Assembly: GCA_040769165.1 (NCBI GenBank)
Contig: JAXGLP010000001.1
Span: forward strand, 2,284,275 to 2,348,274
DNA from: Armatimonadota bacterium
Lineage (GTDB): Bacteria; Armatimonadota; UBA5829; DSUL01
Direction of reading: 5' to 3'
Length of the DNA stretch: 64,000 nt
The notes beneath the pieces were generated by a model. The model was not told the origin of the DNA. It was given only the letters and a program-made list of their open reading frames with translations, and searched no databases. The translations under genes were made by a program, and so were the position numbers. Below are positions 11,898-55,858 of this stretch, piece by piece. Positions within the stretch are counted from its first letter, which is position 1, and each line of letters starts with the position of its first letter.

Positions 11898-12008
11898 CTG
11901 GCCCCGTGAACCGTGATCTCCGCCAGCCGAATTCCCGCACGACGACGGTGGATTTCGCGGCAAGAGGCAGTATAGTCAGGCGGCGGGGGGCTGTCAATTC
12001 GTCGGATG

Positions 12009-12057
12009 TTGCTGGTTGCTGGTTGCTGGTTGCTGGTTGTTGGTTGCTGGTTGCTGG
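12009..12057. repeat. Heptanucleotide microsatellite (TTGCTGG)x7, one unit TTGTTGG
   Basis: Read directly: ttgctgg ttgctgg ttgctgg ttgctgg ttgttgg ttgctgg ttgctgg. It lies in the divergent intergenic region between the mlaE-like gene and cas3. Confidence 0.9.
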
Positions 12058-12060
12058 ACG

Positions 12061-12117
12061 GATGTGCGGCCATCTCTGCTGGCCGCGCCGGGTCCGGGGG
12101 AGCTGTGCTCCCATCTC
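12061..12117. repeat. Left copy of a ~57-bp imperfect direct repeat flanking the CRISPR-Cas cassette
   Basis: GATGTGCGGCCATCTCTGCTGGCCGCGCCGGGTCCGGGGGAGCTGTGCTCCCATCTC matches 26819..26875 at ~52 of 57 positions. The shared peptide MCGHLCWP.RVRGSCAP appears in spurious ORFs at both sites. Confidence 0.8.
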
Positions 12118-12140
12118 GGGCTGGCGGGGTATCTGGCGCT

Positions 12141-12161
12141 CACTGACAGAATTTGTCAGTG
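12141..12161. promoter_or_regulatory. Perfect palindrome CACTGACA-N5-TGTCAGTG ~40 bp upstream of the cas3 start, a candidate operator. A TAATGT -10-like hexamer follows at 12170.
   Basis: The inverted repeat is read directly from the sequence. Its position relative to the cas3 ATG at 12200 suits repressor or activator binding. Confidence 0.35.
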
Positions 12162-12199
12162 GCATGTGCTAATGTAGCGGCGGAGGCAGCAGCCGACCG

Positions 12200-14512
12200 A
12201 TGAATACAGACGAACGCACGCCGCAAACGCTCTTCGCGCACACGCCGCCGGAAGGCTCGGATAACTGGCACCGGCTGGATGACCACCTCCGGACGGTTGC
12301 CGAACTGGCCGCGCAGTTCGGCGCCCCGTTCGGAGCGGGCGATGAAGCACGCCTTGCCGGACTGCTGCACGACGCCGGAAAGGCCGGAGACCTGTTCCAG
12401 AAACGTCTTCGGGGGCAGGCGAGCAACGTGGACCACTGGTCGCCAGGAGCCTGGGCGGCCATCACCAGGTATCGCAACCTCGCTGTGGCGATGGCGGTAC
12501 AAGGTCACCATCAAGGTCTCAGGCAGGTTGACAAGAACACCCTGCGCCTGCTGGATCCGGGCAGTTGGGGAGCGAGGCACCCCGACGGACCTGCGCTTTC
12601 CGTTGACGATCCCGGCAGGCTGCTGGACATGCTCCATGCGGCCGGGTTGGACCCTGCAGACCCTCACCCGTCGATCTACGGAAAGAGTATTCAGCAGACC
12701 GCCTCAGCTATGCTGGACATCCGCATGCTGTTTTCGGCGCTGGTCGACGCGGACTTTCTGGACACCGAGCGCCACTTCAACCACGGACAGGCGAGGCGCG
12801 CGGCGCCAAGCCTGGAGCCTGGCGCAGCCCTGCAGGTCGTGCGCCAGCACGTTGAAGGCCTGGCGAAGATGCCCGGAGCCGATCCTGAGCTCCTGAAGCT
12901 ACGCTCGGATCTGTTCCAGGCGTGCCTGTCTTCGGCAGGGAATGCCCGCCAGCCGGGGCTATTCACCCTGACGGCGCCCACCGGTGCGGGAAAGACACTG
13001 GCGATGCTTGCGTTCGCGCTCCGGCACGCGCAGCAGGTATCTGCCCGGCGCCTGATCTTCGTCCTCCCCTTCCTCAGCATTATCGAGCAGACGGCACGTG
13101 TCTATCGGGACCTGCTGGGGCCCTCTTTCGGAGAGGATTATGTGGTGGAGCATCACAGCCTGACCGGAACGCGCTCCACGGCGGGCCAGGAGACAGTCGG
13201 CGAAGGCGACGCGGTGGCCGAAAAGGAGCGCCGCCAGAGGCTGATGGCCGAGAACTGGGATGCGCCCGTCATCATCACGACAAGCGTGCAACTCCTCGAA
13301 TCGTTGTTTGCCAACCGGCCGGGGGCCTGCCGGAAGCTGCACCGGCTTGCGTCCAGTGTCATTCTCTTCGACGAAGTGCAGACGCTGCCGCTCTCACTGG
13401 CAATCGCCACGCTGAAGACTCTCTCCCGCCTGACGGCCGGCTACCGGGCCAGCGTCGTGTTTGCCACCGCCACACAGCCGGCTTTCGAGACTCTGAGCCG
13501 CGTTGTGCGCGAAGACCGAAACACCGGCTGGGCGCCAGCCGAGATCGCTTCACCGGAGTTGGGGCTGTTCGGGCGTATCCGGCGAACGAGCGTCACGTGG
13601 CCTGGAAAGGAACCAACATCCTGGGAGCAGCTTGCCGACACGCTGGCCCTGCATCCCCGCGTCCTGTGTGTGGTCAATCTCAAACGTCATGCAGCTGAAC
13701 TCACGCGCCTGTTGAGGGAGCGCGGCGTAGCTGGTGTCCGGCACATCTCCACAAACCTGTGTCCGGCGCACAGGCAGCGTGTGCTCAACGAGATTCGCCA
13801 GACGCTTGAGAACGGTGAAAGCGACGCCTGCCGCCTTGTCGCCACCCAGTGTGTGGAAGCTGGCGTAGACGTAGACTTCCCGGTGCTGTATCGAGCTATG
13901 GGTCCGCTGGAAGCGATTGCGCAGGCTGCGGGCCGCTGCAACCGGAACGGACGGCTGGAGACAGGGCAGGTCGTTGTATTCCGCCCCGAGGACGAAGCCT
14001 ATCCGCCCGGGGCGTACGCACAGGCGGCAGCGGTCACGTGGGCACTGCTGTCGAGGCTGGGCCCTGACGCTATGGACATCGACGACCCGGAGCTGTTCGC
14101 GCGCTATTACACAGAGATGTACGATATTGCCCGCCCCGAAACGCACAACCGGGAACTTCGCGATGCCATCGCAGCGCAGGATTTCGAGGCGGTAGCAAGG
14201 GAGTATCGGATTATCGCGGCGGACGCCATCAACGTTCTGGTTCCCTATGAGGAAGAGGAGTTTGAAGTGCTCTGCAGGGAGACGGAGCAGAGGGGTCTGA
14301 CGGCAAGCTGGCAGAGGCGGGCGCGGCCGTTCGCGGTCTCCGTATTCCGGCCCCGGCCGGCGGACCCGATCCGCCGCTATTTGAAGCCGGTACCCGTTGT
14401 GAGAGGAGGTGATTCGGACGAGTGGTTCATCTACCTGGACCCGGCCCACTACGACAGGGACACCGACCTTGGTCTTGTCGTTCCGGACGAGTCCCAGGTG
14501 CTTATCGCATAG
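12200..14512 (+). CDS. cas3: CRISPR-associated helicase/nuclease Cas3 (HD nuclease plus SF2 helicase), type I-C context
   Basis: N-terminal HD domain (LAGLLHDAGKA...HH), helicase motif I APTGAGKT, motif II ILFDEVQ, and a C-terminal domain. It is followed by cas5c. Confidence 0.92.
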   Translation: MNTDERTPQTLFAHTPPEGSDNWHRLDDHLRTVAELAAQFGAPFGAGDEARLAGLLHDAGKAGDLFQKRLRGQASNVDHWSPGAWAAITRYRNLAVAMAVQGHHQGLRQVDKNTLRLLDPGSWGARHPDGPALSVDDPGRLLDMLHAAGLDPADPHPSIYGKSIQQTASAMLDIRMLFSALVDADFLDTERHFNHGQARRAAPSLEPGAALQVVRQHVEGLAKMPGADPELLKLRSDLFQACLSSAGNARQPGLFTLTAPTGAGKTLAMLAFALRHAQQVSARRLIFVLPFLSIIEQTARVYRDLLGPSFGEDYVVEHHSLTGTRSTAGQETVGEGDAVAEKERRQRLMAENWDAPVIITTSVQLLESLFANRPGACRKLHRLASSVILFDEVQTLPLSLAIATLKTLSRLTAGYRASVVFATATQPAFETLSRVVREDRNTGWAPAEIASPELGLFGRIRRTSVTWPGKEPTSWEQLADTLALHPRVLCVVNLKRHAAELTRLLRERGVAGVRHISTNLCPAHRQRVLNEIRQTLENGESDACRLVATQCVEAGVDVDFPVLYRAMGPLEAIAQAAGRCNRNGRLETGQVVVFRPEDEAYPPGAYAQAAAVTWALLSRLGPDAMDIDDPELFARYYTEMYDIARPETHNRELRDAIAAQDFEAVAREYRIIAADAINVLVPYEEEEFEVLCRETEQRGLTASWQRRARPFAVSVFRPRPADPIRRYLKPVPVVRGGDSDEWFIYLDPAHYDRDTDLGLVVPDESQVLIA

Positions 14513-14527
14513 AAGAGGAGGAACACT

Positions 14528-15247
14528 ATGACGCCGTCGCGTCAAACGCTTGAGGTCTGGGGGAGCCTGGCGTGCTTCACCCGGCCCGAACTCAAAGTGG
14601 AACGCTTCAGCTACCCGGTCATCACGCCATCGGCGGCGCGAGGCATCTTCGACGCCATCTGCGTCAACCGGCACAAGTACCGCTGGCAGGTGCTGAAGGT
14701 GGAGGTGCTGTCGCCGCCCGGCTACATTGCCCTGCGGCGCAACGAGGTGAAGTATAAGACGCCCTCGGAACGGACCATTGGTCAGTGGATGGCCGGCACG
14801 GTAGAGCCGCAGCCGTTGCGGGCCGGCGCCGGGGAAGAGGCCAACACACAGCGCCAGACCATGGCGCTCAAGAACGTCCGTTACCGGCTTCACGCCGAGA
14901 TTCGGCCGTGGAACGGCTATCAGGACGAGCTCGTGTCCATGGAGGCGAAGTTCCGCCGCATCGCTGGCGCAGGCAAGTGCTTCCAACAGCCGTACTTCGG
15001 CTGCCGTGAGTTCCCGGCGTTCTACCAGCTGCTGGAACACGGCGAGGAAGGACCGCCGCCCGCTTCGATAGATGCGCACATCGGGTGGATGCTTTACGAT
15101 GTGTTCGACCTCTCGCGGCCGGGCGAATGCACCGACAGGCCGTTCATCACGCTGTTCGAGGCGAATCTGCGCGGCGGCGTGATGGCGGTGCCGGACTTCG
15201 ATTCGCCGGAGGTGCGGAAGCCTCCGAAGGAGGCCGCCAATGCTTGA
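14528..15247 (+). CDS. cas5: Cas5c (Cas5d), the type I-C Cascade subunit and pre-crRNA endoribonuclease
   Basis: MTPSRQTLEVWGSLACFTRPELKVERFSYPVITPSAARGIFDAIC is the hallmark Cas5d N-terminus. The 239-aa length is typical. Confidence 0.9.
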   Translation: MTPSRQTLEVWGSLACFTRPELKVERFSYPVITPSAARGIFDAICVNRHKYRWQVLKVEVLSPPGYIALRRNEVKYKTPSERTIGQWMAGTVEPQPLRAGAGEEANTQRQTMALKNVRYRLHAEIRPWNGYQDELVSMEAKFRRIAGAGKCFQQPYFGCREFPAFYQLLEHGEEGPPPASIDAHIGWMLYDVFDLSRPGECTDRPFITLFEANLRGGVMAVPDFDSPEVRKPPKEAANA

Positions 15248-17080
15248 CCGCTTGCTGGACTACGCCCGCGCCCAGAGTTTGGGGGCGGAGCCTGGCTTCG
15301 AACCCAAGCGCGTCCGGTGGGCTCTGGACTTCGCTAGCGACATACACCTTGGACCGAGAAGGCTTACCACAGGTGTCATCGTGCACAAGTTGGACAGGGA
15401 GCGGCCCTACCACGGCGCTACTCCATTCATCGACCTTAACCAACAAAGGAAAGCCTAGCATCGGCGTTCACAAACTCGAGCACATCTTCGGCTCCAAGTT
15501 CGCAATTGAGGGCAGAAAGCACGACTGGCACCTACGATGAAAGCCGATTCCGCGTGTTCGAAGAAGGCTCAGCAGTTGGCAAGTTTCTACAGGACCTCGT
15601 TCGGTCTCTACCTGCGACCCCGCCCCAGGCCGCAGTGGCGTGGCGCTGCTTTCTGGCCGGAGAGCAACGCGCTGTGCTTGCAGCGAAACTTGAGGAGTCC
15701 CCGTCCAGAGCCGAGAAGAAGCCGGTCCTCACCGGCGGGGACTACGCCGCGCACTGGCCGAACAGGAGCGGTGGTGGACGGCCCGCGATTGTGCGCTCGT
15801 GGCAGACGGTCGCCAGAACGGCCAGCGACGAGGGGCACCGCGATCGCTGACGTTCAGGCCGTTGTAGAATCGAGAGGGCAGTCGGGTATGTGGACAGTGG
15901 GGGCGCTTGAGCGGCCTATGCCCGCCTTCGACGGGCTAGTCCAGAGCAAGCAGGGACTGAAACTGGTCCCGCGCTGAGGTTTGTTCCTTCAATTGCGCTG
16001 CGTATCTTTCGCGCGGCAAGGGAAAGCGTTCAACGCCCCTGTACAAGCTTGCGCAGATCGTGCAGCAAAAGGGTGGAACAGCCTTATGCTCCTGACTCCT
16101 CCCGCGAACTACTGGATGACGAGAAGTTCTCGGTTTCGGGTGAACTGCACCGAAGGGAGCTACCGCAGTGGATGCGCGGCGATGGCAGGATGTTCTTCTC
16201 CACTGAAAGCAGGCAAGAAGAAGCTCTTTTTTGCCCGGAGGGCCTACACGTCTCGGGGCTTGGCGCGCACGAGGCGACCGCATACGTGACCTTCGGGCTG
16301 CGCGGATGCCGAGCGCGCGAGCGCGGGTGTCCTTCGCTGGTGGCGTGGCAAAAGGCGCTTGGCGAGCGACAGACGGAGAGGCGTTCACGCTTACGGACCT
16401 GGCAATGGCGCCGCGCCGCGCACGCCAGTGGTATGTGCGGAAGCGCACTGGGGAACGTTCCACGCTCATGTCGAGCAGTGAACGAAGGCCGTGGCGGGCC
16501 CTCTTGGGCGTCAGCCTGGGTGCCAGCGCCATATCCCCGGATGTTCTCGCTGTTTCCCGCAAGGCGGTTCTCGGCCGAACTTGAGGCATCGCGCGATGCC
16601 AACACAACGCCTGTGCGGCGCGCACGTCTCAGAAACGGTATCGAGACCGGGCTGGATACAAACCCGCTTGACCGCCTTGTCCTTCTTAACATCTGCCTTT
16701 GTTCGATGAATAACGTGGAGGAACTCAACATGGCCAATCCCGTCGGGGCGGCAACAGAATGCATTCAACGTTTACCGCATCTTCAACCTGATCTGCTATG
16801 CTCAGCGAGAGAAGCGATTGGCGAACGGGGAAGACGATTCTCGTCTCGAATGCCTCGCCCGCAGCAACGCGAATCGCCAGCATCATCCCCGCGCTGTAAC
16901 GCGGTTGCACTCCGTCTACCTGCCGAAACTGCGGCGCGACAAACCTAGACTAGCGACAAATGTTGACAAACAGCTTTCAGGACTTGCTTACGCGGCACTG
17001 AGCTGCCGTCGTACTTAATACAGAGCAAATGGGGCGGTTCTGGAAGGGATTCACCACCGAGATTCGAGAGAGACACAATG
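15240..17080 (+). pseudogene. cas8c: cas8c (csd1) large-subunit gene, disrupted. It is full length in DNA (~1.84 kb) but has no intact reading frame.
   Basis: Frame 0 at 15240 gives MLDRLLDYARAQSLGAEPGFEPKRVRWALDF..., a Cas8c-like N-terminus overlapping the cas5c stop by 8 bp. It stops after 72 codons. Plausible peptide segments then appear in different frames (15506, 15537, 15981, 16049, 16231, ...). The last ~420 bp is much lower in GC. The cas5c-cas7c spacing equals a normal cas8c length. Confidence 0.55.
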
Positions 17081-17102
17081 AACACTGCACCGAAGAGCAA
17101 GC

Positions 17103-18191
17103 TTGGCTATGCTATCGCTTTTCCCGATGACCACGTCATTCGACCCCGCGAAGAGGCACGACTTCGTGTTTCTCTTCGATGCAACCTGGTGCAACCCAAA
17201 TGGTGATCCGGACAACGACAACATGCCCCGTCAGGACCTCGAGACACGCGGGCCTGTGACCAGCGGCGCACTCAAACGCAACCCGCGACTTCATGGCGGA
17301 GGTGTATGGTGACGGCAAGGACCAACGACGAGAGTGGCCGGACGAATCTGTATGTCACACAAAGGTCTTCAAGAACGAACACCAGCCGTGCGTGCCAAGT
17401 TCGGAAAAGGCACACCGAGCAGAACCAGAAACATGCGCGCCTTCTACTGGGATGTCCGGTTGTTCGGTGGCGTCTTTGCCGTGGGCAAGGAAGACGTCGC
17501 CGAAACCGAGCCGCTGGACGGCTCGTGGATGCCGGTTCGCCCGCTGAGACACCAGCGCCGGAAAAGGACAAGGGGACTGAAGGCGAAGAAGGAAGATGCG
17601 CTGAACGGTGGCCAGTGCGTGGCTGTGTGGGGCGCGATTGGACATGGCCGAGAGACGGTTGAGGTGGTCACACCCGGCCTGATGTCGATCGTGCGAACTG
17701 CCCGGGTCGATAACCCTGCTGACGCGGAGGATCAGGATGTGGCGGTATCATCCATGCCAGGGAACTCCGCTATCTTGCCTTACGGTCTCTACCGCGGCTC
17801 GGGCCAGTACTTCTCCACCTTGGACCGCTTCGGCCAGGTTACGCGGGAAGACCTCGCTGTGCTGTGGAACGGGCTGCGGCAGATGTTCCAGTTCTCAGTC
17901 TCGGATGCGCGGCCTGCGGGAAGCATGAAGTCCCTGGGCGCATGGGTGTTCTCACACGACCACAAGCTTGGCAACTACCCCGTTCACAAGCTTCTGCAGC
18001 TCATACAGCCCCGAAGGACAGAGCAAAGCACTGCGACAGAACTGCCCGCGCGGGGCTATCTTGATTATCTGGTCGACCTCGCATGGGACGACGCCGACAC
18101 GTCGTGGGGGGTGGAAAACGGGAGACTCACCCGAGAGGGCAGAGACATCGGTGTTGCTGTCACGGAACTGTATAACGACTGGCGCGACTGA
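17103..18191 (+). CDS. cas7: Cas7c (Csd2) Cascade backbone subunit with an internal out-of-frame segment at ~17285-17400, so possibly a pseudogene
   Basis: N-terminal piece ...[42 protein letters not shown] is a canonical Csd2 motif ending at an in-frame TGA (17310-17312). A +1-frame stretch ([12 protein letters not shown]...[10 protein letters not shown]) carries the expected next motif. The original frame resumes as (F)[10 protein letters not shown]...[12 protein letters not shown]...[12 protein letters not shown]... through to 18191. Confidence 0.7.
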
Positions 18192-18194
18192 CTC

Positions 18195-18869
18195 GTGGTC
18201 TCCGGGCAGCCAGAGCGCGAACCTCCCCAGTGGTCCGACGATGAGCGGGTGATGATCAGCGCGCTCGAGCACTGGGCGTACTGCCCGCGGCAGTGCGCGC
18301 TGATCCACCTGGAGAGCGTCTTCGACGAGAACGTATTCACCCTGCGCGGCAGGCGGGAGCACGAACGCGTGGACCAGGAGACCGCCGTGAGCGAGGCCGG
18401 CGTGGTTACGCAGTTCGCCTTGCCGCTTTGCTCTGAGCGCCTGGGCGTATACGGCAAGGCCGACGCGGTGGAGTTCTGGCCGGACGGGCGAGTCGTGCCG
18501 GTGGAGCACAAGCACGGCAAGCGCGCCAAAGGCGGCAAGCTGCACGACGCGGTGCAGCTTGCCGCCCAGGCCATGTGCCTGGAAGAGATGCTCGGCGTCC
18601 GAATTGCGCTCGGGGCCGTGTTCTATCGGAGGACTCAGCGCAGGCAGGAGGTCGCCATTGACGAGGCTCTGCGCGCAGCGACGGAAGACTGCATCCGTCA
18701 AGTGCGCGCGATGCTCGCCGCCGGGCAGACCCCTCCACCCGTGAACGACAAGCGCTGCCCGGACTGCTCGCTGAAAGATTGCTGCCAGCCGGAGCTGGTG
18801 GAGGCTCTGGCGCGGGACGGACCGGCAAGCGCCCTGTTCGTTCCGGGCGAGGGAGAAGGACTGGACTAG
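18195..18869 (+). CDS. cas4: Cas4 RecB-like nuclease with an Fe-S cluster
   Basis: ISALEHWAYCPRQCALIHLE N-terminal Cys, a central nuclease motif (GKADAVEF...VEHK), and a C-terminal CPDCSLKDCC cysteine cluster. GTG start at 18195, alternative ATG at 18252. Confidence 0.88.
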   Translation: MVSGQPEREPPQWSDDERVMISALEHWAYCPRQCALIHLESVFDENVFTLRGRREHERVDQETAVSEAGVVTQFALPLCSERLGVYGKADAVEFWPDGRVVPVEHKHGKRAKGGKLHDAVQLAAQAMCLEEMLGVRIALGAVFYRRTQRRQEVAIDEALRAATEDCIRQVRAMLAAGQTPPPVNDKRCPDCSLKDCCQPELVEALARDGPASALFVPGEGEGLD

Positions 18870-18886
18870 AGGAGGACGGTAAGGCT

Positions 18887-19942
18887 GTGGCAGCGGAACT
18901 TCTCAACACGCTGTTTGTGATGACGCAGGGCGCGTATGTGCACCTGGATGGCGAGACGGTGAAAGTGGAGCTGAAGGGCGAAACGCTGAAGCAGACTCCG
19001 CTGCACCATCTGGAATCCATCGTCGTGTTCGGGCTGGTGAGTGTGAGCCCGTGGCTGATGCACAAGTGCGCCGAAGATGGCCGGGCCGTGAGCTTTATGG
19101 ACGTCAACGGCCGGTATCTGGCGCGGGTGGAGGGCGCGACAAGCGGCAATGTGCTGCTGCGGAAGGCGCAGTGGGAAGCCTCCGGCGCACCCGCGGCGGC
19201 CGCGGAGATAGCCCGGCGCATCGTTGCGGGCAAGCTTCAGAACTCGCGCTCGGTTGTGCTGCGCGCGCTGCGCGATCTGAACGATCCGGGCGCGAGCGAA
19301 GCACAGCAGGCGAGGAAAGCCGCGCTGGAGCAGGCGGCGCGGGAGCTGGCCGCGCGGATTCAGGCGCTTCCACAGGCGGGGTCCATGGACGCGATACGCG
19401 GCGAGGAGGGTCACGGCGCGCAGGCGTACTTCGAGGCGTTCGACGCCATGATAACGGCCCAACGCACGGACTTCCGCTTCGACAGCCGAAGCCGCAGGCC
19501 GCCGCGCGACCGGGTGAACGCCCTGCTTTCGTTTCTGTACGCGGTGCTTGCCAACGACTGCCGTGCGGCTCTGGAGGGGGTCGGGCTGGACCCGCAGGTG
19601 GGGTTTCTTCACGCCCTGCGGCCGGGCAGGCCGGCGCTGGCCCTGGACCTGATGGAGGAGTTCCGCGCGCCGGTTGCGGACAGGCTGGCGCTGACGCTGA
19701 TAAACCGGCGGCAGGTCGGGGCGGACGACTTCCGGGTGCGCCCCGGAGAGTCGGTTCTGCTGACCGAAGACGGGCGCAAGAAGGTGATCGTGGCCTATCA
19801 GACGCGGAAGCAGACAGAGGTCGCGCATCCTCTCCTGAAGACAAAGACGCCGCTGGGGCTGGTGCTCCACCTGCAGGCGCGGCTTTTGGCGCGCTGCCTG
19901 CGCGGTGATATCCCCGCCTATACGCCCTATATCCCGAGGTGA
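18887..19942 (+). CDS. cas1: Cas1 integrase (type I-C)
   Basis: VAAELLNTLFVMTQGAYVHLDGETVKV..., with catalytic-region motifs (NALLSFLYAVL, EEFRAPVADRLAL). GTG start at 18887 is preceded by a GAGGAGGA ribosome-binding site right after the cas4 stop. The ORF-track upstream extension (18779) is Gly/Arg-rich junk. Confidence 0.9.
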   Translation: MAAELLNTLFVMTQGAYVHLDGETVKVELKGETLKQTPLHHLESIVVFGLVSVSPWLMHKCAEDGRAVSFMDVNGRYLARVEGATSGNVLLRKAQWEASGAPAAAAEIARRIVAGKLQNSRSVVLRALRDLNDPGASEAQQARKAALEQAARELAARIQALPQAGSMDAIRGEEGHGAQAYFEAFDAMITAQRTDFRFDSRSRRPPRDRVNALLSFLYAVLANDCRAALEGVGLDPQVGFLHALRPGRPALALDLMEEFRAPVADRLALTLINRRQVGADDFRVRPGESVLLTEDGRKKVIVAYQTRKQTEVAHPLLKTKTPLGLVLHLQARLLARCLRGDIPAYTPYIPR

Positions 19943-19949
19943 GCAGCAG

Positions 19950-20246
19950 ATGCGTGACGACTATCTGATCTCCTATGACGTGAACACCGAAGACTCCGCG
20001 GGCAGGTCGCGGCTGCGCAAGGCCTCCAAAGCCTGCGTCAATTTCGGCCAGCGGGTGCAGTACTCCGTGTTCGAATGCAAGCTGAACGAGACAGAGATGG
20101 AAGAGCTGCGCCAGCGGCTGCTGAGGATTATCGACAGGGACAAGGATAGCCTCAGGTTCTACCGGCTTCCCGGCGGGCGCGAGCGCTGCGTGGAGACGTA
20201 CGGCATAGACAAGTACACCGACCCCGACGCGCCGCTCATCGTCTAG
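19950..20246 (+). CDS. cas2: Cas2
   Basis: MRDDYLISYDVNTEDSAGRSRLRKASKACVNFGQRVQYSVFECKL is a typical Cas2 fold. The ATG at 19950 lies 8 bp after the cas1 stop. Confidence 0.9.
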   Translation: MRDDYLISYDVNTEDSAGRSRLRKASKACVNFGQRVQYSVFECKLNETEMEELRQRLLRIIDRDKDSLRFYRLPGGRERCVETYGIDKYTDPDAPLIV

Positions 20247-20425
20247 CAGCGCGAACCCCAAGCGGGGACGCTGCAAGCGTGAGGTTCGCGCAGCCTGAGG
20301 CCCACTTCTGAGCGTGCGCAGCCTGCCCTGCTGCAAAAGCCGGCGGCAGGGCAGGAAACCGCATTGGTCGTCAGGAACACACGTTTTGAGCTTGAAGACG
20401 CCTGAATCGGGCGTTTTCAGGCGCC
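20247..20425 (+). promoter_or_regulatory. CRISPR leader (~180 bp) between cas2 and the first repeat
   Basis: Its position between cas2 and the array, together with a degenerate repeat at the distal end of the array, indicates this is the leader-proximal (acquisition) end. Confidence 0.6.
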
Positions 20426-23400
20426 GTTGCATCGGCCCTTCGGGGCCGGTGAGGATTGAAACAGGCGTTGAATGACAGTCTCGGCCCACGGCTCAATGTT
20501 GCATCGGCCCTTCGGGGCCGGTGAGGATTGAAACAGGTTGCCGCACTTGTCGAAGGTCAATGTCCGCATCGTTGCATCGGCCCTTCGGGGCCGGTGAGGA
20601 TTGAAACTTCTTTATCCAGTCGAACGCCGCGCCCAGGCGCGTTGCATCGGCCCTTCGGGGCCGGTGAGGATTGAAACAGGCGCAAGCGGCAGGAGTCGGA
20701 GCAGGTCTTGCGTTGCATCGGCCCTTCGGGGCCGGTGAGGATTGAAACTCGCACTGCCAGACAATCTCCATCCCGGCACGTTCGTTGCATCGGCCCTTCG
20801 GGGCCGGTGAGGATTGAAACAGATGGCGGGGCGACGGCGCTGGCACGAAAACGGAGTTGCATCGGCCCTTCGGGGCCGGTGAGGATTGAAACACACCACC
20901 TCCGGCGGGGCCGGGTGCGCGAAGGGTTGCATCGGCCCTTCGGGGCCGGTGAGGATTGAAACACCTGCACGGCCTCGGCCTGCATCGCGGCGTTCGTTGC
21001 ATCGGCCCTTCGGGGCCGGTGAGGATTGAAACAGCCAGAAGCTGACGGCCGAGCGCAAGGCGGCCCTGGGTTGCATCGGCCCTTCGGGGCCGGTGAGGAT
21101 TGAAACCTGGCTCGTGCACGAGCAGGACTGCGCGGCGCTGGGTTGCATCGGCCCTTCGGGGCCGGTGAGGATTGAAACTCCTGGAGCAGCGGCCAGTCGT
21201 GCTGGACGCAGTAGTTGCATCGGCCCTTCGGGGCCGGTGAGGATTGAAACGTGGCTGTCGCCCGTGCTGCTGGCGCGAGTGTTGCATCGGCCCTTCGGGG
21301 CCGGTGAGGATTGAAACAGGCGCAGGTCGTGGCCGCCGCCGAGGCTCAGGGCGTTGCATCGGCCCTTCGGGGCCGGTGAGGATTGAAACAGTCGGGGTCA
21401 GTCGGAGGTGTCGGGGCAGGATGTGGTTGCATCGGCCCTTCGGGGCCGGTGAGGATTGAAACCTGGCCGTCTCAACGCTCGGGTACGCGGACCTGTTCTG
21501 GTTGCATCGGCCCTTCGGGGCCGGTGAGGATTGAAACCATCAGTCCTTGCCTTTCAGTGTTGTGACAAAAGGTTGCATCGGCCCTTCGGGGCCGGTGAGG
21601 ATTGAAACCCGATTACGACAGACACCATACCATGGGGCGACATGGTTGCATCGGCCCTTCGGGGCCGGTGAGGATTGAAACGCCTCGAGGGCCGCGATCT
21701 TGTCCGTGAGCACCGTTGCATCGGCCCTTCGGGGCCGGTGAGGATTGAAACTGTCCGTGGGTGACGGCATCCGGGGCCTCGATTTCGTTGCATCGGCCCT
21801 TCGGGGCCGGTGAGGATTGAAACCGGGTGCGGAGGATGGCGGGCGCTGAGTTCAAGGGCGTTGCATCGGCCCTTCGGGGCCGGTGAGGATTGAAACGTTC
21901 CACCCGGCAGAAGGCGGTGCGAACCCGACGTTGCATCGGCCCTTCGGGGCCGGTGAGGATTGAAACAAGGCGGGCGACTACCCGCACAAAGGGTTCTCGC
22001 TGGTTGCATCGGCCCTTCGGGGCCGGTGAGGATTGAAACATCACGGAGGACGCCCGCCGCCATCTGCGCGGCGAGTTGCATCGGCCCTTCGGGGCCGGTG
22101 AGGATTGAAACCCGCTGCACAACGTGTCCGTGCGCGGCGAACTGGGTTGCATCGGCCCTTCGGGGCCGGTGAGGATTGAAACCTGTCAGCCTACGGAGGA
22201 TCCGCCAAGTCCATCATCGTTGCATCGGCCCTTCGGGGCCGGTGAGGATTGAAACGCGGGCCGTGGGTGCAGGAGTTCCTGCACGAGGCGTTGCATCGGC
22301 CCTTCGGGGCCGGTGAGGATTGAAACACGTTAGCCTCGGCAGGCACGACCAGCGTGCCCGTTGCATCGGCCCTTCGGGGCCGGTGAGGATTGAAACCTCA
22401 GCCGGGTAGAGCTGTCCCACCCACGACACGTAGTTGCATCGGCCCTTCGGGGCCGGTGAGGATTGAAACTTGACCACGCGGTAGCGCATGTACGCCAGTA
22501 TCTGTTGCATCGGCCCTTCGGGGCCGGTGAGGATTGAAACTAGCCGTGCCCGCGCCGGTCACCATCCAGAAGCGGTTGCATCGGCCCTTCGGGGCCGGTG
22601 AGGATTGAAACACCTGCACCGCGTTCGCAGTCGTGCCGGCCGTCCATGGTTGCATCGGCCCTTCGGGGCCGGTGAGGATTGAAACGGGTCAACGGGAAGC
22701 GGCATCAGGTCGTCTCCTCGGGTTGCATCGGCCCTTCGGGGCCGGTGAGGATTGAAACGCCGCGTCCTCAGCCGCCTTCGCTGCCTCCAGCGCGTTGCAT
22801 CGGCCCTTCGGGGCCGGTGAGGATTGAAACTCCTCGCAGTGGGCGCGGATCTTCCTGAAGGCGGCGTTGCATCGGCCCTTCGGGGCCGGTGAGGATTGAA
22901 ACACCGGTGAGTCTTCGCCGCGCTCCTGCGCGCGCGCGTTGCATCGGCCCTTCGGGGCCGGTGAGGATTGAAACCCGCAACACCCTGCGCTCGCTGGAAG
23001 GCCAGGTTGCATCGGCCCTTCGGGGCCGGTGAGGATTGAAACTGGTGCCGGGGCAACTGTACAAGAACGTCCAGTCGGTTGCATCGGCCCTTCGGGGCCG
23101 GTGAGGATTGAAACATCGAGCATTTCATCGCAACACCTCCGCCGCTTCGTTGCATCGGCCCTTCGGGGCCGGTGAGGATTGAAACGCTCTCCGTATGTCA
23201 TGTCTGTTCCTCGCTGCCGTTGCATCGGCCCTTCGGGGCCGGTGAGGATTGAAACAGTCAGACCAAGCGCATATACGAGAGGCAGCAGGAGTTGCATCGG
23301 CCCTTCGGGGCCGGTGAGGATTGAAACCTCGTGTGGATCCGCTGGTGGAAAAACCATCGGCGTGTTGCATCGGCCCTTCGGGGCCGGTGAGGATTGAAAC

Positions 23401-26400
23401 TTTCATAGCGTTTTGTATTTCTCCCGCAGCTCCTGTTGCATCGGCCCTTCGGGGCCGGTGAGGATTGAAACTTGCTGTACTCCAGATGGTTGTTGGCGAA
23501 CGAGGTTGCATCGGCCCTTCGGGGCCGGTGAGGATTGAAACACCTCCGCGCCGCTGGACGCGTCAGAATCGCCTGTTGCATCGGCCCTTCGGGGCCGGTG
23601 AGGATTGAAACCCGTGACCATCCGGCCCATCCGCGCAGTTGCTCCCGGTTGCATCGGCCCTTCGGGGCCGGTGAGGATTGAAACCTCGAAAAGGGCGCAG
23701 ATCACAAAACGTTCGGGTTGCATCGGCCCTTCGGGGCCGGTGAGGATTGAAACGGTAAACGTTTCTCCCGGCTGTTGCGGGTCGCGGGTTGCATCGGCCC
23801 TTCGGGGCCGGTGAGGATTGAAACGCGCGGTGGTGTGGCTGGCCGGTCGGCTCGCGTGGTTGCATCGGCCCTTCGGGGCCGGTGAGGATTGAAACAGCGA
23901 GCTTGAAGCCGAGCTCGATTCCGAGCAAGGTTGCATCGGCCCTTCGGGGCCGGTGAGGATTGAAACTTTGCCGGGGTGGAGGTCGCGGAATTGCCTGGTG
24001 GTTGCATCGGCCCTTCGGGGCCGGTGAGGATTGAAACTACCCGCCCGCTAACCCAGGCTGCGTCGCGCAGGTTGCATCGGCCCTTCGGGGCCGGTGAGGA
24101 TTGAAACGGGTTAGTTGCCCAGAGAAACAGCACGCAGTCAGCGTTGCATCGGCCCTTCGGGGCCGGTGAGGATTGAAACAGGTCCGGCCAGGTCGTTGCC
24201 GTGTCCGTCCAGCTGTTGCATCGGCCCTTCGGGGCCGGTGAGGATTGAAACTGTGCGGCCTGTCCGTGCCGGAGGATCTCGCGCTGTTGCATCGGCCCTT
24301 CGGGGCCGGTGAGGATTGAAACGTATCTGAGGACGGAGACCGCTACGTGGTGAGCGTGGTTGCATCGGCCCTTCGGGGCCGGTGAGGATTGAAACAACGT
24401 GGTAGTCGCGGACATCATCGCGCCGGACGGCACGGCAGTTGCATCGGCCCTTCGGGGCCGGTGAGGATTGAAACACGGCGGAGGATCCGTTCGGTGGCAA
24501 GTGAAGCCGGTTGCATCGGCCCTTCGGGGCCGGTGAGGATTGAAACACATCGCACCAGTGCGAAGCTCGCAGCCAGTTCAGTTGCATCGGCCCTTCGGGG
24601 CCGGTGAGGATTGAAACTCGAACACGGCGCCGGTCTTCTCAGTGCTGGCGGGGTTGCATCGGCCCTTCGGGGCCGGTGAGGATTGAAACCAGGGCGCCGC
24701 CGAGCCACTTCGTCGAGCCCAGCGGTTGCATCGGCCCTTCGGGGCCGGTGAGGATTGAAACCGCTCAACTGGCAGCCAGTCGCCGGGGTGCACTAGTTGC
24801 ATCGGCCCTTCGGGGCCGGTGAGGATTGAAACGTCCATGTGCCTATCGCGGGGGACATCGCGGCGGGTTGCATCGGCCCTTCGGGGCCGGTGAGGATTGA
24901 AACTTTCGAGGGGCTGACAAACACCACGGGCGCACTCCAGTTGCATCGGCCCTTCGGGGCCGGTGAGGATTGAAACAGCGTGCCCTCGCCCGTGACGGCC
25001 GTGCCGGTAAGTTGCATCGGCCCTTCGGGGCCGGTGAGGATTGAAACCTCATGATACCACGAAACGTGAGGCCGAATGGGGTTGCATCGGCCCTTCGGGG
25101 CCGGTGAGGATTGAAACCACACACCCCAGCGGCGGAGTCTTTTTCGTGCAGACGTTGCATCGGCCCTTCGGGGCCGGTGAGGATTGAAACGTCTCCTCGG
25201 GCGGCGCCTCAGTCACGGTGAACGTGGTTGCATCGGCCCTTCGGGGCCGGTGAGGATTGAAACGATGTATCCGATGCCGGATGTCCCGATCTCCGTAGCG
25301 TTGCATCGGCCCTTCGGGGCCGGTGAGGATTGAAACACCGGTTTGCCCGTAACCTTCCGCAGCCACCGCCCGTTGCATCGGCCCTTCGGGGCCGGTGAGG
25401 ATTGAAACCGAGCAGGCCGAGTCGAGGCGTATGCGGCAGTGTGTTGCATCGGCCCTTCGGGGCCGGTGAGGATTGAAACGGTACGTCGCAGGCGACCAGA
25501 GCGGCCCGCCCTTGGGTTGCATCGGCCCTTCGGGGCCGGTGAGGATTGAAACAGTAGCACATCACAAATCGGAGAAATGGCGGGCCGTTGCATCGGCCCT
25601 TCGGGGCCGGTGAGGATTGAAACCTCTGCTACTCCTGCCACGAGCCGAAAGACGACGTTGCATCGGCCCTTCGGGGCCGGTGAGGATTGAAACTGCGCGC
25701 AAGTAGTTGCCAATCCTCTGAACGTTGCATCGGCCCTTCGGGGCCGGTGAGGATTGAAACCTATACTACCTATAGTTGGCATGGATGGTCAAGGGGTTGC
25801 ATCGGCCCTTCGGGGCCGGTGAGGATTGAAACACGCAATGCCAGCGGTACGAGCTCAACTCGTCGTAGTTGCATCGGCCCTTCGGGGCCGGTGAGGATTG
25901 AAACCCCGGTCGCGGCGCCCTCCGCCGTCAAACACGCGTTGCATCGGCCCTTCGGGGCCGGTGAGGATTGAAACAGGCCCGGCACGTGCTGCACAAGCCG
26001 CCACTCGTGTTGCATCGGCCCTTCGGGGCCGGTGAGGATTGAAACGATTCGCCGCATGTTGCCGGTGATCGAGTCGTCGGTTGCATCGGCCCTTCGGGGC
26101 CGGTGAGGATTGAAACCACTGCTCGAATATAGGCTACAGGTTTCCCGATGGTTGCATCGGCCCTTCGGGGCCGGTGAGGATTGAAACCCCTTTGACCTTC
26201 CATGTTGCTGTTGCTATATGGGTTGCATCGGCCCTTCGGGGCCGGTGAGGATTGAAACATCATGGCGCTCGCCAAGGATGAGGTAGAGGCGGTCCGTTGC
26301 ATCGGCCCTTCGGGGCCGGTGAGGATTGAAACAATCTCACAAGAGTGAGGCCGGAGGCAACGACCCAAGTTGCATCGGCCCTTCGGGGCCGGTGAGGATT

Positions 26401-26780
26401 GAAACGGGAGCGCGTTTCTGCCGACAGTTGTCGGAACCGCCACGGTTGCATCGGCCCTTCGGGGCCGGTGAGGATTGAAACGCTGAGTGGCGATGGACAA
26501 CAGAGCGGAGTTGGAGTTGCATCGGCCCTTCGGGGCCGGTGAGGATTGAAACTCCAGCAGCCGTCGCTCCCAGGCGTCCAGATTCAGCCCCAGAAGAAGG
26601 TTGCATCGGCCCTTCGGGGCCGGTGAGGATTGAAACTGCCGGAGCGGTCGTTCAGTTTCAGCTTGCCCAAGGTTGCATCGGCCCTTCGGGGCCGGTGAGG
26701 ATTGAAACACTCGGTGGTGCCCGACATGATGGGCGCTATCAAGGTTGCATCGGCCCTTCGGGGCACCTGGCACCGGGGAA
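20426..26780 (+). CRISPR. CRISPR array of 88 intact repeats plus 1 degenerate terminal repeat, 88 spacers of 33-37 bp. Repeat: GTTGCATCGGCCCTTCGGGGCCGGTGAGGATTGAAAC (37 bp).
   Basis: Repeats counted by eye at ~72-bp periodicity from 20426 to 26744. The 3' GATTGAAAC is characteristic of type I-C. The repeat contains a perfect 6-bp stem (CGGCCC/GGGCCG) with a TTCG tetraloop. The last repeat diverges after ~20 nt. Confidence 0.97.
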
Positions 26781-42449: not shown

Positions 42450-42524
42450 TGGTGGGCCCACCCGGATTCGAACCAGGGACCAAGCGGTTATGAGCCGCCC
42501 GCTCTACCGCTGAGCTATGGGCCC
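42450..42524 (-). tRNA. tRNA-Met (anticodon CAT), elongator type with G1-C72. A tRNA-Ile2 (lysidine-CAU) assignment cannot be excluded. CCA is encoded.
   Basis: The reverse complement folds as GGGCCCA-TA-GCTC-AGCGGTA-GAGC-G-GGCGG-CTCATAA-CCGCT-TGGTC-CCTGG-TTCGAAT-CCGGG-TGGGCCC-A-CCA. All stems pair, and the T-loop TTCGAAT is present. Confidence 0.85.
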
Positions 42525-42647: not shown

Positions 42648-44515
42648 TCAGTCGGGGTCGAGCCGTCTCCCGCTGATCTCGTAGGCGGAGATCATCCACT
42701 TCGACCCCACCAGTTCGAACGTGTAGCGCTCGTACTGAACGCTTCCGAAGATCCCCGAGTCGCGCAGCTCGTGCTTCGCATAGACCATCACCTCGCCGGG
42801 CCGGACGGGCAGGACGCGCTGGATTTCGAACCGGCGCGTTCCCTCATCCTCCATCGTGTCGCGCATCCGCGACAGGAACTCGCGATCCTGCACCCAGTAC
42901 AGGTACTCGCCCTCCTGATAGAGACGGATGGGCAAATCCCTGTCGAGGTGATCGCCGATCAGCTCGAGATCGTCCTTCAGCCAGGCATCACGGATGTCCC
43001 GGGCGGCATCCTCCACTTCGTCTCTGTCGCGGCGGTATCCCGGCCACGGCTCGGCGCTCGAAGAGGACTCCTGATAGTCGCTGGTTGACACCGTCTCCAC
43101 CCGGTAAGTGGTGGATGCAGGCCGATAGACGACGACCACGCTGCTTCCGTAGTAAGGATCGTACACGTAGTCGTTGTACCCCCAGTAGAAGTAGCTGCTG
43201 GTCCGGTACGGCCAGTACTGATACACCGGATACGGCACGTACCGGTTGCGAGTGACGACGCGCACCGGCGGGCAGTGGCCGGCGTACTGGCGCCAGAACT
43301 CTCTCTTGGGATGCCGGTGCGACCGGGAGCGGTCCCAGAGCTGGGTGTAACGCTCGAACGCCCGCGGCGGGTCGGCGCTGCGATAGCTGGTGATATGATC
43401 CGGGATCTTGATATCCCCGGGCTGCGATGGGTGCTTGTTGCGCAGCCACTGGTTGAACTCGGAGCGCCGCGGCTCAGGGACGGTGCGATCGATGACCGTG
43501 AACCTGCCCGGAGCGGGATTGTTTGCGGCAGGCGGGCGCGCCTGGCCGCCGGGGCGGTTGTTGAAGCTGTTGCCCTGCTCCCGCCGCACATCGGGCACGG
43601 GCTCGGGGCGCGGCTGCGACGGCTGTTCGACAGCGGGCGGTCTGGGAACCGACGGGTTCTCACGCACGCCGCCCTGATTCAGCCGGTTCGCGGGTGGCTG
43701 CGGACCAACGGTTCCATTCTCCACGGACGGACGCCGGGGCGTGATGATTATCGGCTCGTCTGCCGGCTCGGGGCTGCGAGGAGGCGCGGGGCGCGTCTGC
43801 TCGGGTCTGCGCACAGGCTCGGTCCGGTTGGCGGGCGGCTCGTTTCTGGGAGCCGGCTGCTCAGCGCGGACGGGAGCAGGCTCCCGGACGGCAGGCTGCT
43901 GCGGCGCGGGCTCTTCGCGGCGCACGGTTGGCTCGCGAGGCTCTGTGCGTGAGGGCGGAGTTGACGGAGTCCGGCCGGACGGCGCGGGTTCGCGCTCGCG
44001 AACAGTGGGCGCCTGCGGCTGCGGGTCGGCCCTGCGCTCGGGAGCGCGGGCAGGCTCAGGGCCGCGGGTGCGATCGGACGGCGAGGAATCACGCTCGCGG
44101 GCTGTGGGTGCAGGAGCCGGGTCCTGGCGGCGCTCAGGCGCGGGACGGCTCGGGCTCTCGGACGGCGAGGAATCACGCTCGCGGGCTGTGGGCGGAGGAG
44201 CCGGGTCCTGGCGGCGCTCAGGCGCGGCCTCGGGACGGCTCGGGGACGGCGCGCGGCCGGACGGAGCGGAGTCACGCTCGCGGGCTGTCGGTGCAGGAGC
44301 CGGGTCCTGGCGGCGCTCAGGCGCGGGGCGGCTCGGGCTCTGGGACGGCGAGGAGTCACGCTCGCGGCTGCCGGAGCGGTCAGGCGCCGCGGACGGCGCC
44401 GAGCCGCGCTCTGGCTCGCGAGCGGGCCGGTCCTGCCGCCACTGGCCCGTCACAGGCACAGCAGCCATCAGGCCCACAAGAACGGGCAAAGTGATCAGAA
44501 GCGCTAATCTTCGCA
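42648..44515 (-). CDS. Secreted proline-rich protein with ~33-aa tandem repeats (PAPERRQDPAPAPTARERDSSPS...) and a Tyr-rich C-terminal globular domain of unknown function
   Basis: Signal peptide MRRLALLITLPVLVGLMAAVPVTG. The repeats are encoded by ~105-bp DNA tandem repeats. The C-terminal ~250 aa include YVPYPVYQYWPYRTSSYFYWGYNDYVYDPYYGSS. Confidence 0.7.
44080..44400. repeat. ~105-bp tandem DNA repeat (~3 copies) inside the proline-rich protein gene
   Basis: GACGGCGAGGAATCACGCTCGCGGGCTGTGGG(T/C)GCAGGAGCCGGGTCCTGGCGGCGCTCAGGCGCGG... recurs three times with minor variants. Confidence 0.75.
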
Positions 44516-44636
44516 TTTGAGACACCTCCCCAGACAACAGGCAATACCAGGGCAGATCACGCTCGAACCGCTCGGCGGCGGCTCCCGGAGTCACCACCCT
44601 TATGAGCGGGGGACTCTCACGGCCCCAAACCCTCTG

Positions 44637-45674
44637 TCAATTAGACGCAGAACGGGGCTGGCGGGTTGCATTTGAGGCGGAAGGGGAGTTTCGCCGCGCA
44701 ATTACACTGATAACCATCTGCTCAAGCTGCAGATCGGCCTGCGCGTACGCCATGATCAGCCAGCGCGCGCGGTTCACCGCATCCACCGCGCGGGCGAGGG
44801 CAGAGGCTGTCCAGCCGGCCGGAAGCGGCCGCGCGAGCCGCGACTGCCACTCGGCCATCACGGCGTCGAGCACCCATGCCAGAGCCTGCCGTTCGCTTGC
44901 CCCGTCCTCGCCCGGCAGATGCTTGCGCGCCCGCCCCGCCAGAGAACTCAACTCGGACGCCAGCCTGAGCGCGGCGCGCATGTCAGCCGCCAGCAGCGCA
45001 TCCGTCCAGTCACGCACCTCCGCCAGTATCTGCAGCAGATCCTGGTTGCCCGACAGGCGGATGGCCCGCCCGGGCGCTCCGGCCGCATAATCCGCCAGCC
45101 TGCCCGCCCCGGCTTCATCCACGCCTCTGGCTGCCAGGAACTCCCTGATCCGCTCTCGAGGAACGCCTTTGAGCGGAATCTCGATGCTGCGTGAGCGTAT
45201 GGTCGCGAGGACAGACCTGGCCGACGGCGCGAGCAGAAGAAGCAGCAGGCGCACGGGGGCATCTTCCAGAACCTTAAGAATCGCGTTCGCCGCCTGCTCG
45301 TTCAGCGTTTCGGCGCGCTCCACGATAAAAATGCGGCGCGGCCCGATGTTGGGAGCAAGGCTGGCGATGTAGCGCAGCTCCCGCATCTGCCCGATGGTGG
45401 TCTCTTCTTTGGGAGGAGCGACTCGAAGCACATCCGGATGCGTGCCCGCCCTGGAAAGCTCGCACGAGCGGCACTCGCCGCACGCCCGGCCATCGTCGAG
45501 CGGCGCCAGGCAGACGAGATCGGCGGCAAGGGCGAGCGCGAATGTCGTCTTCCCCACCCCGTCCTGGCCCGTTACGAGCAGGGCGTGCGCGAGGCGCCCG
45601 TCCGCCGCCATGCCGCGAACGGTCTCCAGAGCCCGCTCGTGGCCGAGCAGGCCGCCACCGTCACCAGCGCTCAA
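44637..45674 (-). CDS. holB: DNA polymerase III subunit delta-prime
   Basis: GHERALETVRGMAADGRLAHALLVTGQDGVGKTT, a CGECRSCELSRAGTHPD zinc-module-like segment, and SRS/IRSRS sensor motifs. Confidence 0.88.
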   Translation of the reverse strand: MSAGDGGGLLGHERALETVRGMAADGRLAHALLVTGQDGVGKTTFALALAADLVCLAPLDDGRACGECRSCELSRAGTHPDVLRVAPPKEETTIGQMRELRYIASLAPNIGPRRIFIVERAETLNEQAANAILKVLEDAPVRLLLLLLAPSARSVLATIRSRSIEIPLKGVPRERIREFLAARGVDEAGAGRLADYAAGAPGRAIRLSGNQDLLQILAEVRDWTDALLAADMRAALRLASELSSLAGRARKHLPGEDGASERQALAWVLDAVMAEWQSRLARPLPAGWTASALARAVDAVNRARWLIMAYAQADLQLEQMVISVIARRNSPSASNATRQPRSASN

Positions 45675-55120: not shown

Positions 55121-55309
55121 GTGGTTGGTATCCTCCCCGGAAAGTACTCCGGCGTTTCCCCATGACTACGGGGTGCATGGTCTGGCGTCCTGCGTCAGAT
55201 AAGCAATCGCCATCGCAGCGAAATCAGAAAGGGCCCCGGGGCAGGAGGCCCCGAAGCCCTGTAGTGTCGAGCAGCCGGGCTCAGAGGCCCGGCAAGCAAT
55301 AGAGGCGGT

Positions 55310-55609
55310 TTACCAGCGGTTGCGTCCGCCGCCACCGCCGCGGTTGCCGTAACCGCCGCCGCCACCGCTGCCGCGCTCCGGACGAGGACGCGCCTCGTTG
55401 ACCGTCAGCGGGCGGCCATCCAGCGTCTGGCCATTCAGGGCATCGATCGCCGCCTGGGCGTTCTCAGCAGGAATGTCCACGAACGCGAAGCCCTTCTCTC
55501 CGATAACCCGCACAGACTCGATCGGGCCATACGGCTCGAACAGTTCACGAATGGAGCCCTCCGATGTGGAGTAGCTCATGTTGCCAACATACAGCGACTT
55601 AGTAGCCAT
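55310..55609 (-). CDS. Glycine-rich RNA-binding protein with an RRM domain
   Basis: RNP-2 LYVGNM, RNP-1 KGFAFVDI, and a C-terminal GGGGGYGNRGGGGGRNRW tail. Confidence 0.85.
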   Translation of the reverse strand: MATKSLYVGNMSYSTSEGSIRELFEPYGPIESVRVIGEKGFAFVDIPAENAQAAIDALNGQTLDGRPLTVNEARPRPERGSGGGGGYGNRGGGGGRNRW

Positions 55610-55858
55610 CTATGATTCCTTCTGACTTCAACCCTGGATTTCAACGAGAAGCGAGACAGCGCGCGTAGTAATGAGCGGGAGTCAGTCACGGGATCCAGTC
55701 CGAGCGCAGAAAAGGAAAGCTATCCACGGGAAACAGGAGGCCGATGTGCCTGGTTGAGGAGGGTTGTGCGTCAATGGCTTAGACGCTGGACAAAACAGGT
55801 TTGTTCCGCCCGGTTCGAAGAGGCGCCAGGGGGCCCCCCGGAGGCGATGGGACGCGCG

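Follow-up and report, generated by a model that had tools for sequence, protein, structure and literature searches.

The type I-C CRISPR locus of an Armatimonadota bacterium raises the question of whether its interference effector has really been lost: in the 64,000-nucleotide stretch of DNA analysed here (the window), a large CRISPR array lies beside cas8c and cas7c genes that cannot be translated as deposited. The initial annotation gave most prominence to decay of the effector, with the array orphaned from interference, and offered a localized assembly or population-heterogeneity artefact and non-standard decoding as alternatives. The operon is arranged in the order cas3, cas5c, an interval without any long open reading frame in the correct frame, pieces of cas7c, cas4, cas1, cas2, and the array, and its intact parts are the following.

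12200–14512, + strand: cas3, A-type allele, intact, 770 aa with HD and helicase; Pfam and NCBIfam matches to the Cas3 HD, helicase, and C-terminal domains
14528–15247, + strand: cas5c, A-type allele, intact, 239 aa; TIGR01876 Cas5c, 1.1e-31
18195–18869, + strand: cas4, intact, 224 aa; PF01930, 1e-22; exact protein on contig L083
18887–19942, + strand: cas1, intact, 351 aa; exact protein on L083, with PF01867
19950–20246, + strand: cas2, intact, 98 aa; gene call on L083 with PF09827, the start being placed from the 98-aa length
20426–26764, + strand: CRISPR array, 88 perfect 37-nt repeats (GTTGCATCGGCCCTTCGGGGCCGGTGAGGATTGAAAC), 87 spacers of 30–47 nt, and a degenerate terminal repeat

The locus is very probably an ordinary type I-C CRISPR locus, not a decaying one. 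Its Cas5c is of the Cas5d type and matches TIGR01876, the operon has no cas6-like gene, and Cas3 (HD nuclease plus helicase), the Cas4–Cas1–Cas2 adaptation module, and the adjacent array are all present. TIGR02589 and PF05107 match the Cas7c (Csd2) gene at both of its ends, and only there. When the broken part is read through intact relatives, the gene order and protein families are those of canonical type I-C systems (cas3-cas5c-cas8c-cas7c-cas4-cas1-cas2-array, no cas6); the array is likewise canonical, with 37-nt repeats in the window. The other genes had been described as clean, which holds for all that were compared: cas3 is 99.8% identical to contig L100 and 99.0% identical to L002 with no frameshifts, cas3 and cas5c together are 99.8% identical to a sister contig without gaps, the exact Cas5c protein also occurs on the independent contigs L001 and L002, and L083 matches the window at 99.5% over positions 17581–20462. 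The array is as large as reported, except that its 88 repeats enclose 87 spacers, not 88, and are followed by the degenerate terminal repeat of 21 nt at 26744–26764.

The broken reading frames are truly present in the deposited window sequence, as had been claimed. Codon-position GC periodicity is lost, with a spread of 0.03–0.17 at ~15350–17500 against 0.25–0.44 in the flanking cas genes, and none of the stop-free fragments of 15240–17100 had a match in Pfam or NCBIfam, because a frameshift occurs about every 40 nt. A tblastx comparison of the interval with 80 type I-C loci retrieved by their Cas5c found nothing significant at 15342–17126, since those loci carry A-like Cas8c rather than the B-type described below. 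No record was returned by exact-product look-ups of the truncated window open reading frames at 15240–15458, 17103–17312, and 17334–18191. The interval was also considered as an RNA element or intron; this was ruled out with Rfam, which matched nothing in the interval and, across the whole window, only a tRNA-Met at 42450–42524.

What the interval encodes becomes apparent from B-type relatives, in which the same DNA is an intact cas8c (617 aa) and cas7c (374 aa) pair on ten independent short-read contigs (L084–L093). With these as references, the region is composed as follows.

15240–17081, + strand: cas8c if corrected; B-type reference of 617 aa, Cas_Csd1 (L084 3063–4916; PF09709, 3.3e-43, full length)
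15341–17651, + strand: error-dense patch, covering all of B-type cas8c from codon 29 onward and codons 1 to ~190 of B-type cas7c (global alignment to L084)
17078–18191, + strand: cas7c; B-type reference P0001, 374 aa; noisy to 17651 and clean from 17652

Positions 15338–20519 of the window align with L084 3146–8366, and the DNA of L084–L093 equals that of window 15338–18300 base for base save for errors private to the window. No window fragment by itself matches Cas_Csd1, but, 48 indels aside, the DNA is that which encodes the 617-aa Cas_Csd1 protein in L084 (3.3e-43). P0001 is intact on 15 contigs (PF05107, 1.2e-50) and 85% identical to the stitched window translation. An intact ~600-aa cas8c and a continuous cas7c in a sister sequence, which the initial annotation had named in advance as the observation that would overturn its pseudogene reading, are thus both found in L084–L093, as the 617-aa Cas_Csd1 and the 374-aa Cas7. 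Compared with L084, the patch has 66 small indels, 57 of them frame-shifting, and 59 substitutions, all within 15351–17650. Accordingly, several details of the earlier description need revision. Scattering of cas8c over five or more frames correctly described broken frames but not their extent, the 57 frameshifting indels being divided between cas8c (40) and cas7c (17); of the 72 codons taken as a Cas8c N-terminus from 15240, only the first ~34 represent the upstream allele, the first frameshift falling at 15351. In cas7c, the start at 17103 is corrected to 17078, and in place of a single +1 excursion of ~110 bp the frame changes many times up to 17651.

The distribution of these differences bears directly on genuine pseudogenisation, in which cas8c and cas7c would be decaying, for example after self-targeting, and leaving an orphaned array. 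The broken frames and the lost codon periodicity are what such decay would produce, and the locus superficially resembles degenerate CRISPR-Cas loci with orphan arrays in having a large array beside effector genes untranslatable as deposited. In real degenerate loci, however, lesions are common to isolates, substitutions occur alongside indels, and the repeats have often decayed, none of which is seen here. In a multiple alignment, the ten B-type contigs, though from different samples, differ among themselves at only 2 columns, whereas 174 columns separate the window from their consensus, none at a B-polymorphic site and none after 17651; all 174 are private to the window and absent from the ten related contigs. 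Substitutions do not outnumber indels (59 against 66, an indel-to-substitution ratio of 1.1:1), while neutral decay at the 0.4% divergence of the flank would predict about one indel. Nor is the divergence unbounded: the damage breaks off sharply midway through cas7c, at 17651, after which 2.6 kb of sequence shares 99.6% identity with intact relatives; over these 2,640 nt there is no indel, and 9 of the 11 substitutions are synonymous third-position changes. Within the patch, 41 of the 59 substitutions are nonsynonymous and codon position 2 is the commonest site. The strand asymmetry of the substitutions, given below, likewise counts against decay. The array argues in the same direction: its 88 repeats are without a single error, although the patch rate would lead one to expect 176, and no spacer fully matches elsewhere in the window, where partial matches do not exceed 20 nt. 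With the same DNA intact in L084–L093, effector decay is not borne out, and we regard it as very improbable.

Non-standard decoding, by which programmed frameshifting or recoding would express cas8c and cas7c, is favored by the frameshifts themselves and by nothing further. The ribosome would have to shift frame 57 times, in sequence contexts unrelated to one another, instead of at a conserved site with a slippery motif, and both genes are single uninterrupted open reading frames in the ten near-identical contigs and in the more distant homologues P0003–P0020. We consider this reading effectively excluded.

It is very likely, in our assessment, that sequencing and assembly errors, not mutations, produced the frameshifts in cas8c and cas7c, and the error signature suggests their source. 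The patch has an error rate of 5.4% by event and 7.1% by base; by event, mismatches account for 2.6%, deletions for 1.9%, and insertions for 1.0%, with deletions exceeding insertions 2:1. The indels form a dense run of 1–3 nt changes; homopolymers hold about 40% of them, and short repeats several more. Of the substitutions, 86% are transitions, and these are strand-asymmetric, T<->C changes (43) far outnumbering A<->G (8; binomial p = 7e-7). Raw Nanopore (ONT) reads have an error of ~5.7% overall and ~8% in high-GC reads, deletions being most frequent, and, in read orientation, A<->G errors far above C<->T (PMC8486125). The patch spectrum matches this published raw-read error: the rate lies at ~5–8%, deletions exceed insertions, and both the transition excess and the strand asymmetry of raw single-molecule reads are present, with a mismatch share slightly over the published range (PMC8486125) and an insertion share slightly under it. 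Residual long-read errors that mimic pseudogenes are a described problem (PMC12007338, PMC8486125), and the patch resembles the residual Nanopore-type errors of draft and metagenomic assemblies in its deletion-biased 1–3 nt indels, transitions, and 5–7% rate, as well as in the apparent pseudogenisation of genes intact in relatives. It differs from genome-wide residual error in being one 2.3-kb block, within an otherwise essentially error-free contig, that starts exactly at a haplotype switch; such a block looks like an unpolished or bridged segment. Diversity-generating and hypermutation mechanisms were also considered and rejected, the differences being indel-rich and not adenine-specific.

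The left edge of the patch coincides exactly with a switch between two alleles of cas8c.

15240–15340, + strand: first 101 nt of cas8c, A2-type allele (MLDRLLDYARAQSLGAEPGFEPKRVRWALDFAS-D), identical in L096, L098, L099, and L100
15340–15341, no strand: haplotype switch, A2-type on the left and B-type on the right, at homologous codons and with the frame preserved; the two share only CGA (three-way alignment)

Matches to A-type contigs end at 15334–15340 and those to B-type contigs begin at 15338. At the right edge (17651) no haplotype boundary is identifiable, which counts against the artefact reading. It is possible that the frameshifts are errors while the A2|B junction is real, belonging to a rare recombinant strain in which A-type cas3-cas5c is fused in frame to B-type cas8c-cas7c-cas4-cas1-cas2, and which is represented by a long read, or a few of them, that could not be polished. 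The join keeps the reading frame and links homologous codons (D34 of A2 and D29 of B), cas modules are demonstrably exchanged at this site, with a 67-codon A-type cas3 remnant retained in the B-type contigs, and the similarity between A and B climbs along the operon, from 70% in cas4 to 94% in cas1 and 98% in cas2. Against these points, the junction is on no independent contig. Six contigs within L094–L100 that match the left side of the window at 96–99.8% carry the same cas8c 5' allele, yet all five that pass 15340 (L094, L096, L098, L099, and L100) run on into A2-type cas8c, L094 spanning the point with a complete A2-type Cas8c of 585 aa; where B-type contigs reach leftward across the junction, their cas5 is B-type. 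The shared CGA alone is far short of what homologous recombination needs, and co-assembly of an A-type Cas5c with Cas8c and Cas7 that are 26–33% identical to their A-type counterparts seems doubtful. A real join, which we judge unlikely, would represent a hybrid operon (A-type Cas3/Cas5c, chimeric Cas8c, B-type Cas7) and a snapshot of interference-module swapping inside the Cascade operon.

The favored explanation remains the second of the original alternatives, a localized assembly or population-heterogeneity artefact, in keeping with differences that are private, sharply bounded, and indel-rich. The contig, at 2.35 Mb in NCBI with a 6.3-kb array of identical repeats, is probably a long-read assembly. 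The patch would then be a 2.3-kb block whose error profile is that of one raw Nanopore-type read, probably from the minus strand, while the rest of the contig was polished. The block carries B-type interference genes belonging to a co-occurring strain, and its junction with A2-type cas3-cas5c at 15340|15341 most likely arose through chimeric joining or the filling of a gap where strains vary. The patch is most likely a long-read segment that was chimeric or left unpolished, the platform and the assembly step being deduced from its characteristics. An in-frame A2|B switch at homologous codons would rarely arise from a random chimeric read, so that part of the arrangement may be real. The real genomes have intact type I-C operons, either A2-type (Cas8c, 585 aa; Cas7, 325 aa) or B-type (617 aa and 374 aa), the B-type Cas7 differing from that of canonical type I-C systems in its length, with an insertion of ~45 aa.

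For annotation, the locus is to be treated as an ordinary type I-C system whose deposited region needs re-polishing. More generally, a long contig that looks clean may hide raw-read error confined to one short section where strains vary, and a naive reading of such a section would suggest effector decay, an orphan array, or recoding. The comparison also offers a view of the population, in which alternative interference modules (cas3, cas5, cas8, and cas7) that are only 26–36% identical occupy one chromosomal site, the Cas8c and Cas7 of the B-type and A-type being only about 26–28% identical there, and adjoin a conserved adaptation module and identical repeats. The window array and the A2-type array of L094 have no spacers in common. 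Such alternation of modules agrees with the modular evolution already known for CRISPR-Cas systems.

The underlying system is of ordinary type I-C, and gene calling and family assignment identified the following parts:
12200–14512, cas3
14528–15247, cas5c
18195–18869, cas4
downstream of cas4, cas1, cas2, and a CRISPR array

Between cas5c and cas4, a long ORF in a consistent frame is absent; fragments of 15240–17100 gave zero model matches in Pfam and NCBIfam, and the matches to Cas7 models of both collections are confined to the beginning and the end of the cas7c region. The codon-position GC periodicity spread is 0.03–0.17 at ~15350–17500 versus 0.25–0.44 in the neighboring cas genes. The broken reading frames noticed in the initial annotation are thus truly present in the window sequence. 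Outside this cas stretch and the array, weak periodicity is also seen at 43701–44900, overlapping a 649-aa ORF, and at 55001–56000, without an ORF of at least 150 aa.

A search with the stitched translation of the window cas7c retrieved an intact 374-aa Cas7 (P0001; 85% identity over 97% of the query) and a 252-aa product (P0002) that equals window 17433–18191. P0001 is encoded on 15 contigs, and those read (L084–L093) carry a complete operon of one allelic type, here called B, with cas3 (725 aa), cas5 (214 aa), cas8c (617 aa; PF09709 at 3.3e-43 in L084), cas7 (374 aa), cas4, cas1, and cas2. Because L084 3146–8366 aligns to window 15338–20519, the seemingly unrecognizable interval corresponds to B-type cas8c followed by B-type cas7c. 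Sister sequences with a cas8c of ~600 aa in one piece and an uninterrupted cas7c therefore contradict the proposed disruption of these genes and also dispose of non-standard decoding. The B-type Cas7c (window 17078–18191) is unusually long at 374 aa and carries an insertion, acidic and proline-rich, that spans roughly 45 aa at P0001 residues ~150–195 and is common to a small family of 357–404-aa Cas7 proteins (P0003–P0020), one of which is labeled Armatimonadetes.

Global alignment of the window with L084 confined the damage to a sharply bounded patch:
15341–17651 (events 15351–17650), patch, 2,311 nt, 66 indels (44 deletions and 22 insertions), 59 substitutions
17661–20300, following clean stretch, 2,640 nt, 0 indels, 11 substitutions

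Single-base events account for 42 of the 66 indels, and 57 are frameshifting (cas8c, 40; cas7c, 17). Across ~2.96 kb, only 2 columns vary within a set of ten B-type contigs drawn from different ENA and Logan samples. Against the consensus of this set, the window has 174 differing columns, of which none lies beyond 17651 and none coincides with a site polymorphic within the set. The clean-stretch substitutions, 9 of 11 being synonymous third-position changes, look like real divergence under selection, while 41 of the 59 patch substitutions are nonsynonymous, most commonly at codon position 2. The 37-nt repeat is free of errors in all 88 copies, versus ~176 errors expected at the patch rate. The last window-private cluster (17622–17651) changes GCVSIDMAE, in a conserved Cas7 segment, to an 11-residue sequence, as compared with L083 1–75, and lies within ~70 nt of the start of this independent short-read contig (17581).

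Effector decay with an orphaned array, another reading of the initial annotation, was rejected. The flank divergence of 0.4% would leave time for roughly one neutral indel, not 66; the damage breaks off abruptly partway through cas7c; indels and substitutions occur at a ratio of about 1:1; and the substitution spectrum is strand-asymmetric (43 T↔C versus 8 A↔G, p = 7e-7), which is unexpected for mutations fixed in duplex DNA. The patch matches raw Nanopore reads characterized by Delahaye and Nicolas (PMC8486125) in overall error (5.4% by event and 7.1% by base, versus about 5.7% with HAC basecalling and about 8% in high-GC reads), and deletions (1.9% versus 1.6–2.7%, the most frequent class in the reads), with mismatches (2.6% versus 1.2–2.2%) slightly above and insertions (1.0% versus 1.1–2.4%) slightly below the published range. 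Transitions, in excess in such reads, constitute 86% of the patch substitutions, and 28 of the 66 indels fall in homopolymers, in addition to GA/GAG repeat slips, versus about half of raw-read errors in homopolymers or short repeats (PMC8486125). The dominance of T↔C on the plus strand would fit a minus-strand read, as A↔G dominates in read orientation (PMC8486125). The length of the contig, 2.35 Mb, and the 6.3 kb of identical repeats within it also point to a long-read assembly, for which gene-fragmenting indels are a well-described artifact (PMC12007338; PMC8486125). Altogether, the sharply bounded, window-private, Nanopore-like errors favor the localized assembly or population-heterogeneity artifact that had been among the initial proposals; the broken cas8c and cas7c are not a real feature.

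The patch start coincides exactly with a switch from the alternative A2-type allele to B-type at 15340|15341, the first error lying 10 nt beyond. An exact-protein look-up of the window Cas5c found two independent contigs, L002 (99.0% identity over 12107–15334) and L001 (92.6% over 12222–15334), in both of which the match ends at 15334 and an intact Cas_Csd1 gene follows. In L094–L100, with near-identical Cas5c, the match extends to 15312–15340, gap-free at 99.8% identity in L100. The left side is shared by five contigs that run beyond 15340, and each of them continues as A2; L096, L098, L099, and L100 equal the window through 15340, including its own cas8c 5′ allele, and then run on as A2-type cas8c. 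The complete A2 allele on the 54-kb contig L094 encodes a 585-aa Cas8c (PF09709, 3.5e-85), followed by Cas7 (325 aa), Cas4, Cas1, Cas2, and an array. Where B-type contigs reach past the junction to the left, their cas5 is B-type. The short-read contigs L095, L097, L098, and L100 end inside the first 70–290 nt of cas8c (window 15270–15530), and divergence between the A and A2 alleles sets in at ~15270, after 3 kb at 99% identity, the cas5c/cas8c boundary being a population-level polymorphism hotspot.

The junction would most likely be a chimeric join or a long-read bridge across a strain-variable region. A real, rare recombinant seems unlikely: the switch joins homologous codons in frame, as such an event would allow, but the two sides have no more than CGA in common, the junction occurs in none of the independent contigs compared, and a Cascade combining the Cas5c of type A with B-type Cas8c and Cas7 is doubtful, since identity between the interference proteins of A2 and B is only 26–36% (Cas3, 36%; Cas5, 33%; Cas8c, 28% across a short segment; Cas7, 26%). 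Whether or not the junction is real, the cas8c and cas7c frameshifts are technical.

The adaptation proteins of the two types are closer (Cas4, 70%; Cas1, 94%; Cas2, 98%), and the 37-nt repeat is identical. In related strains, the same chromosomal site is occupied by either of two alternative type I-C interference modules, A/A2-type or B-type (window 11964–20462; L084, L087, and L094), each adjoining the conserved adaptation module and the same repeat. B-type contigs retain a 125-aa ORF that opens with 67 codons from the 5′ end of A-type cas3 (L087 237–614), a remnant marking operon replacement. The window array (20426–26764) holds 87 unique spacers of 30–47 nt and ends in a degenerate 21-nt terminal repeat (26744–26764); none of the spacers is shared with the 49 of the L094 A2-type array or matches any other part of the window over its full length. 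The value of this case is mainly cautionary, the alternative interference modules being a secondary observation.
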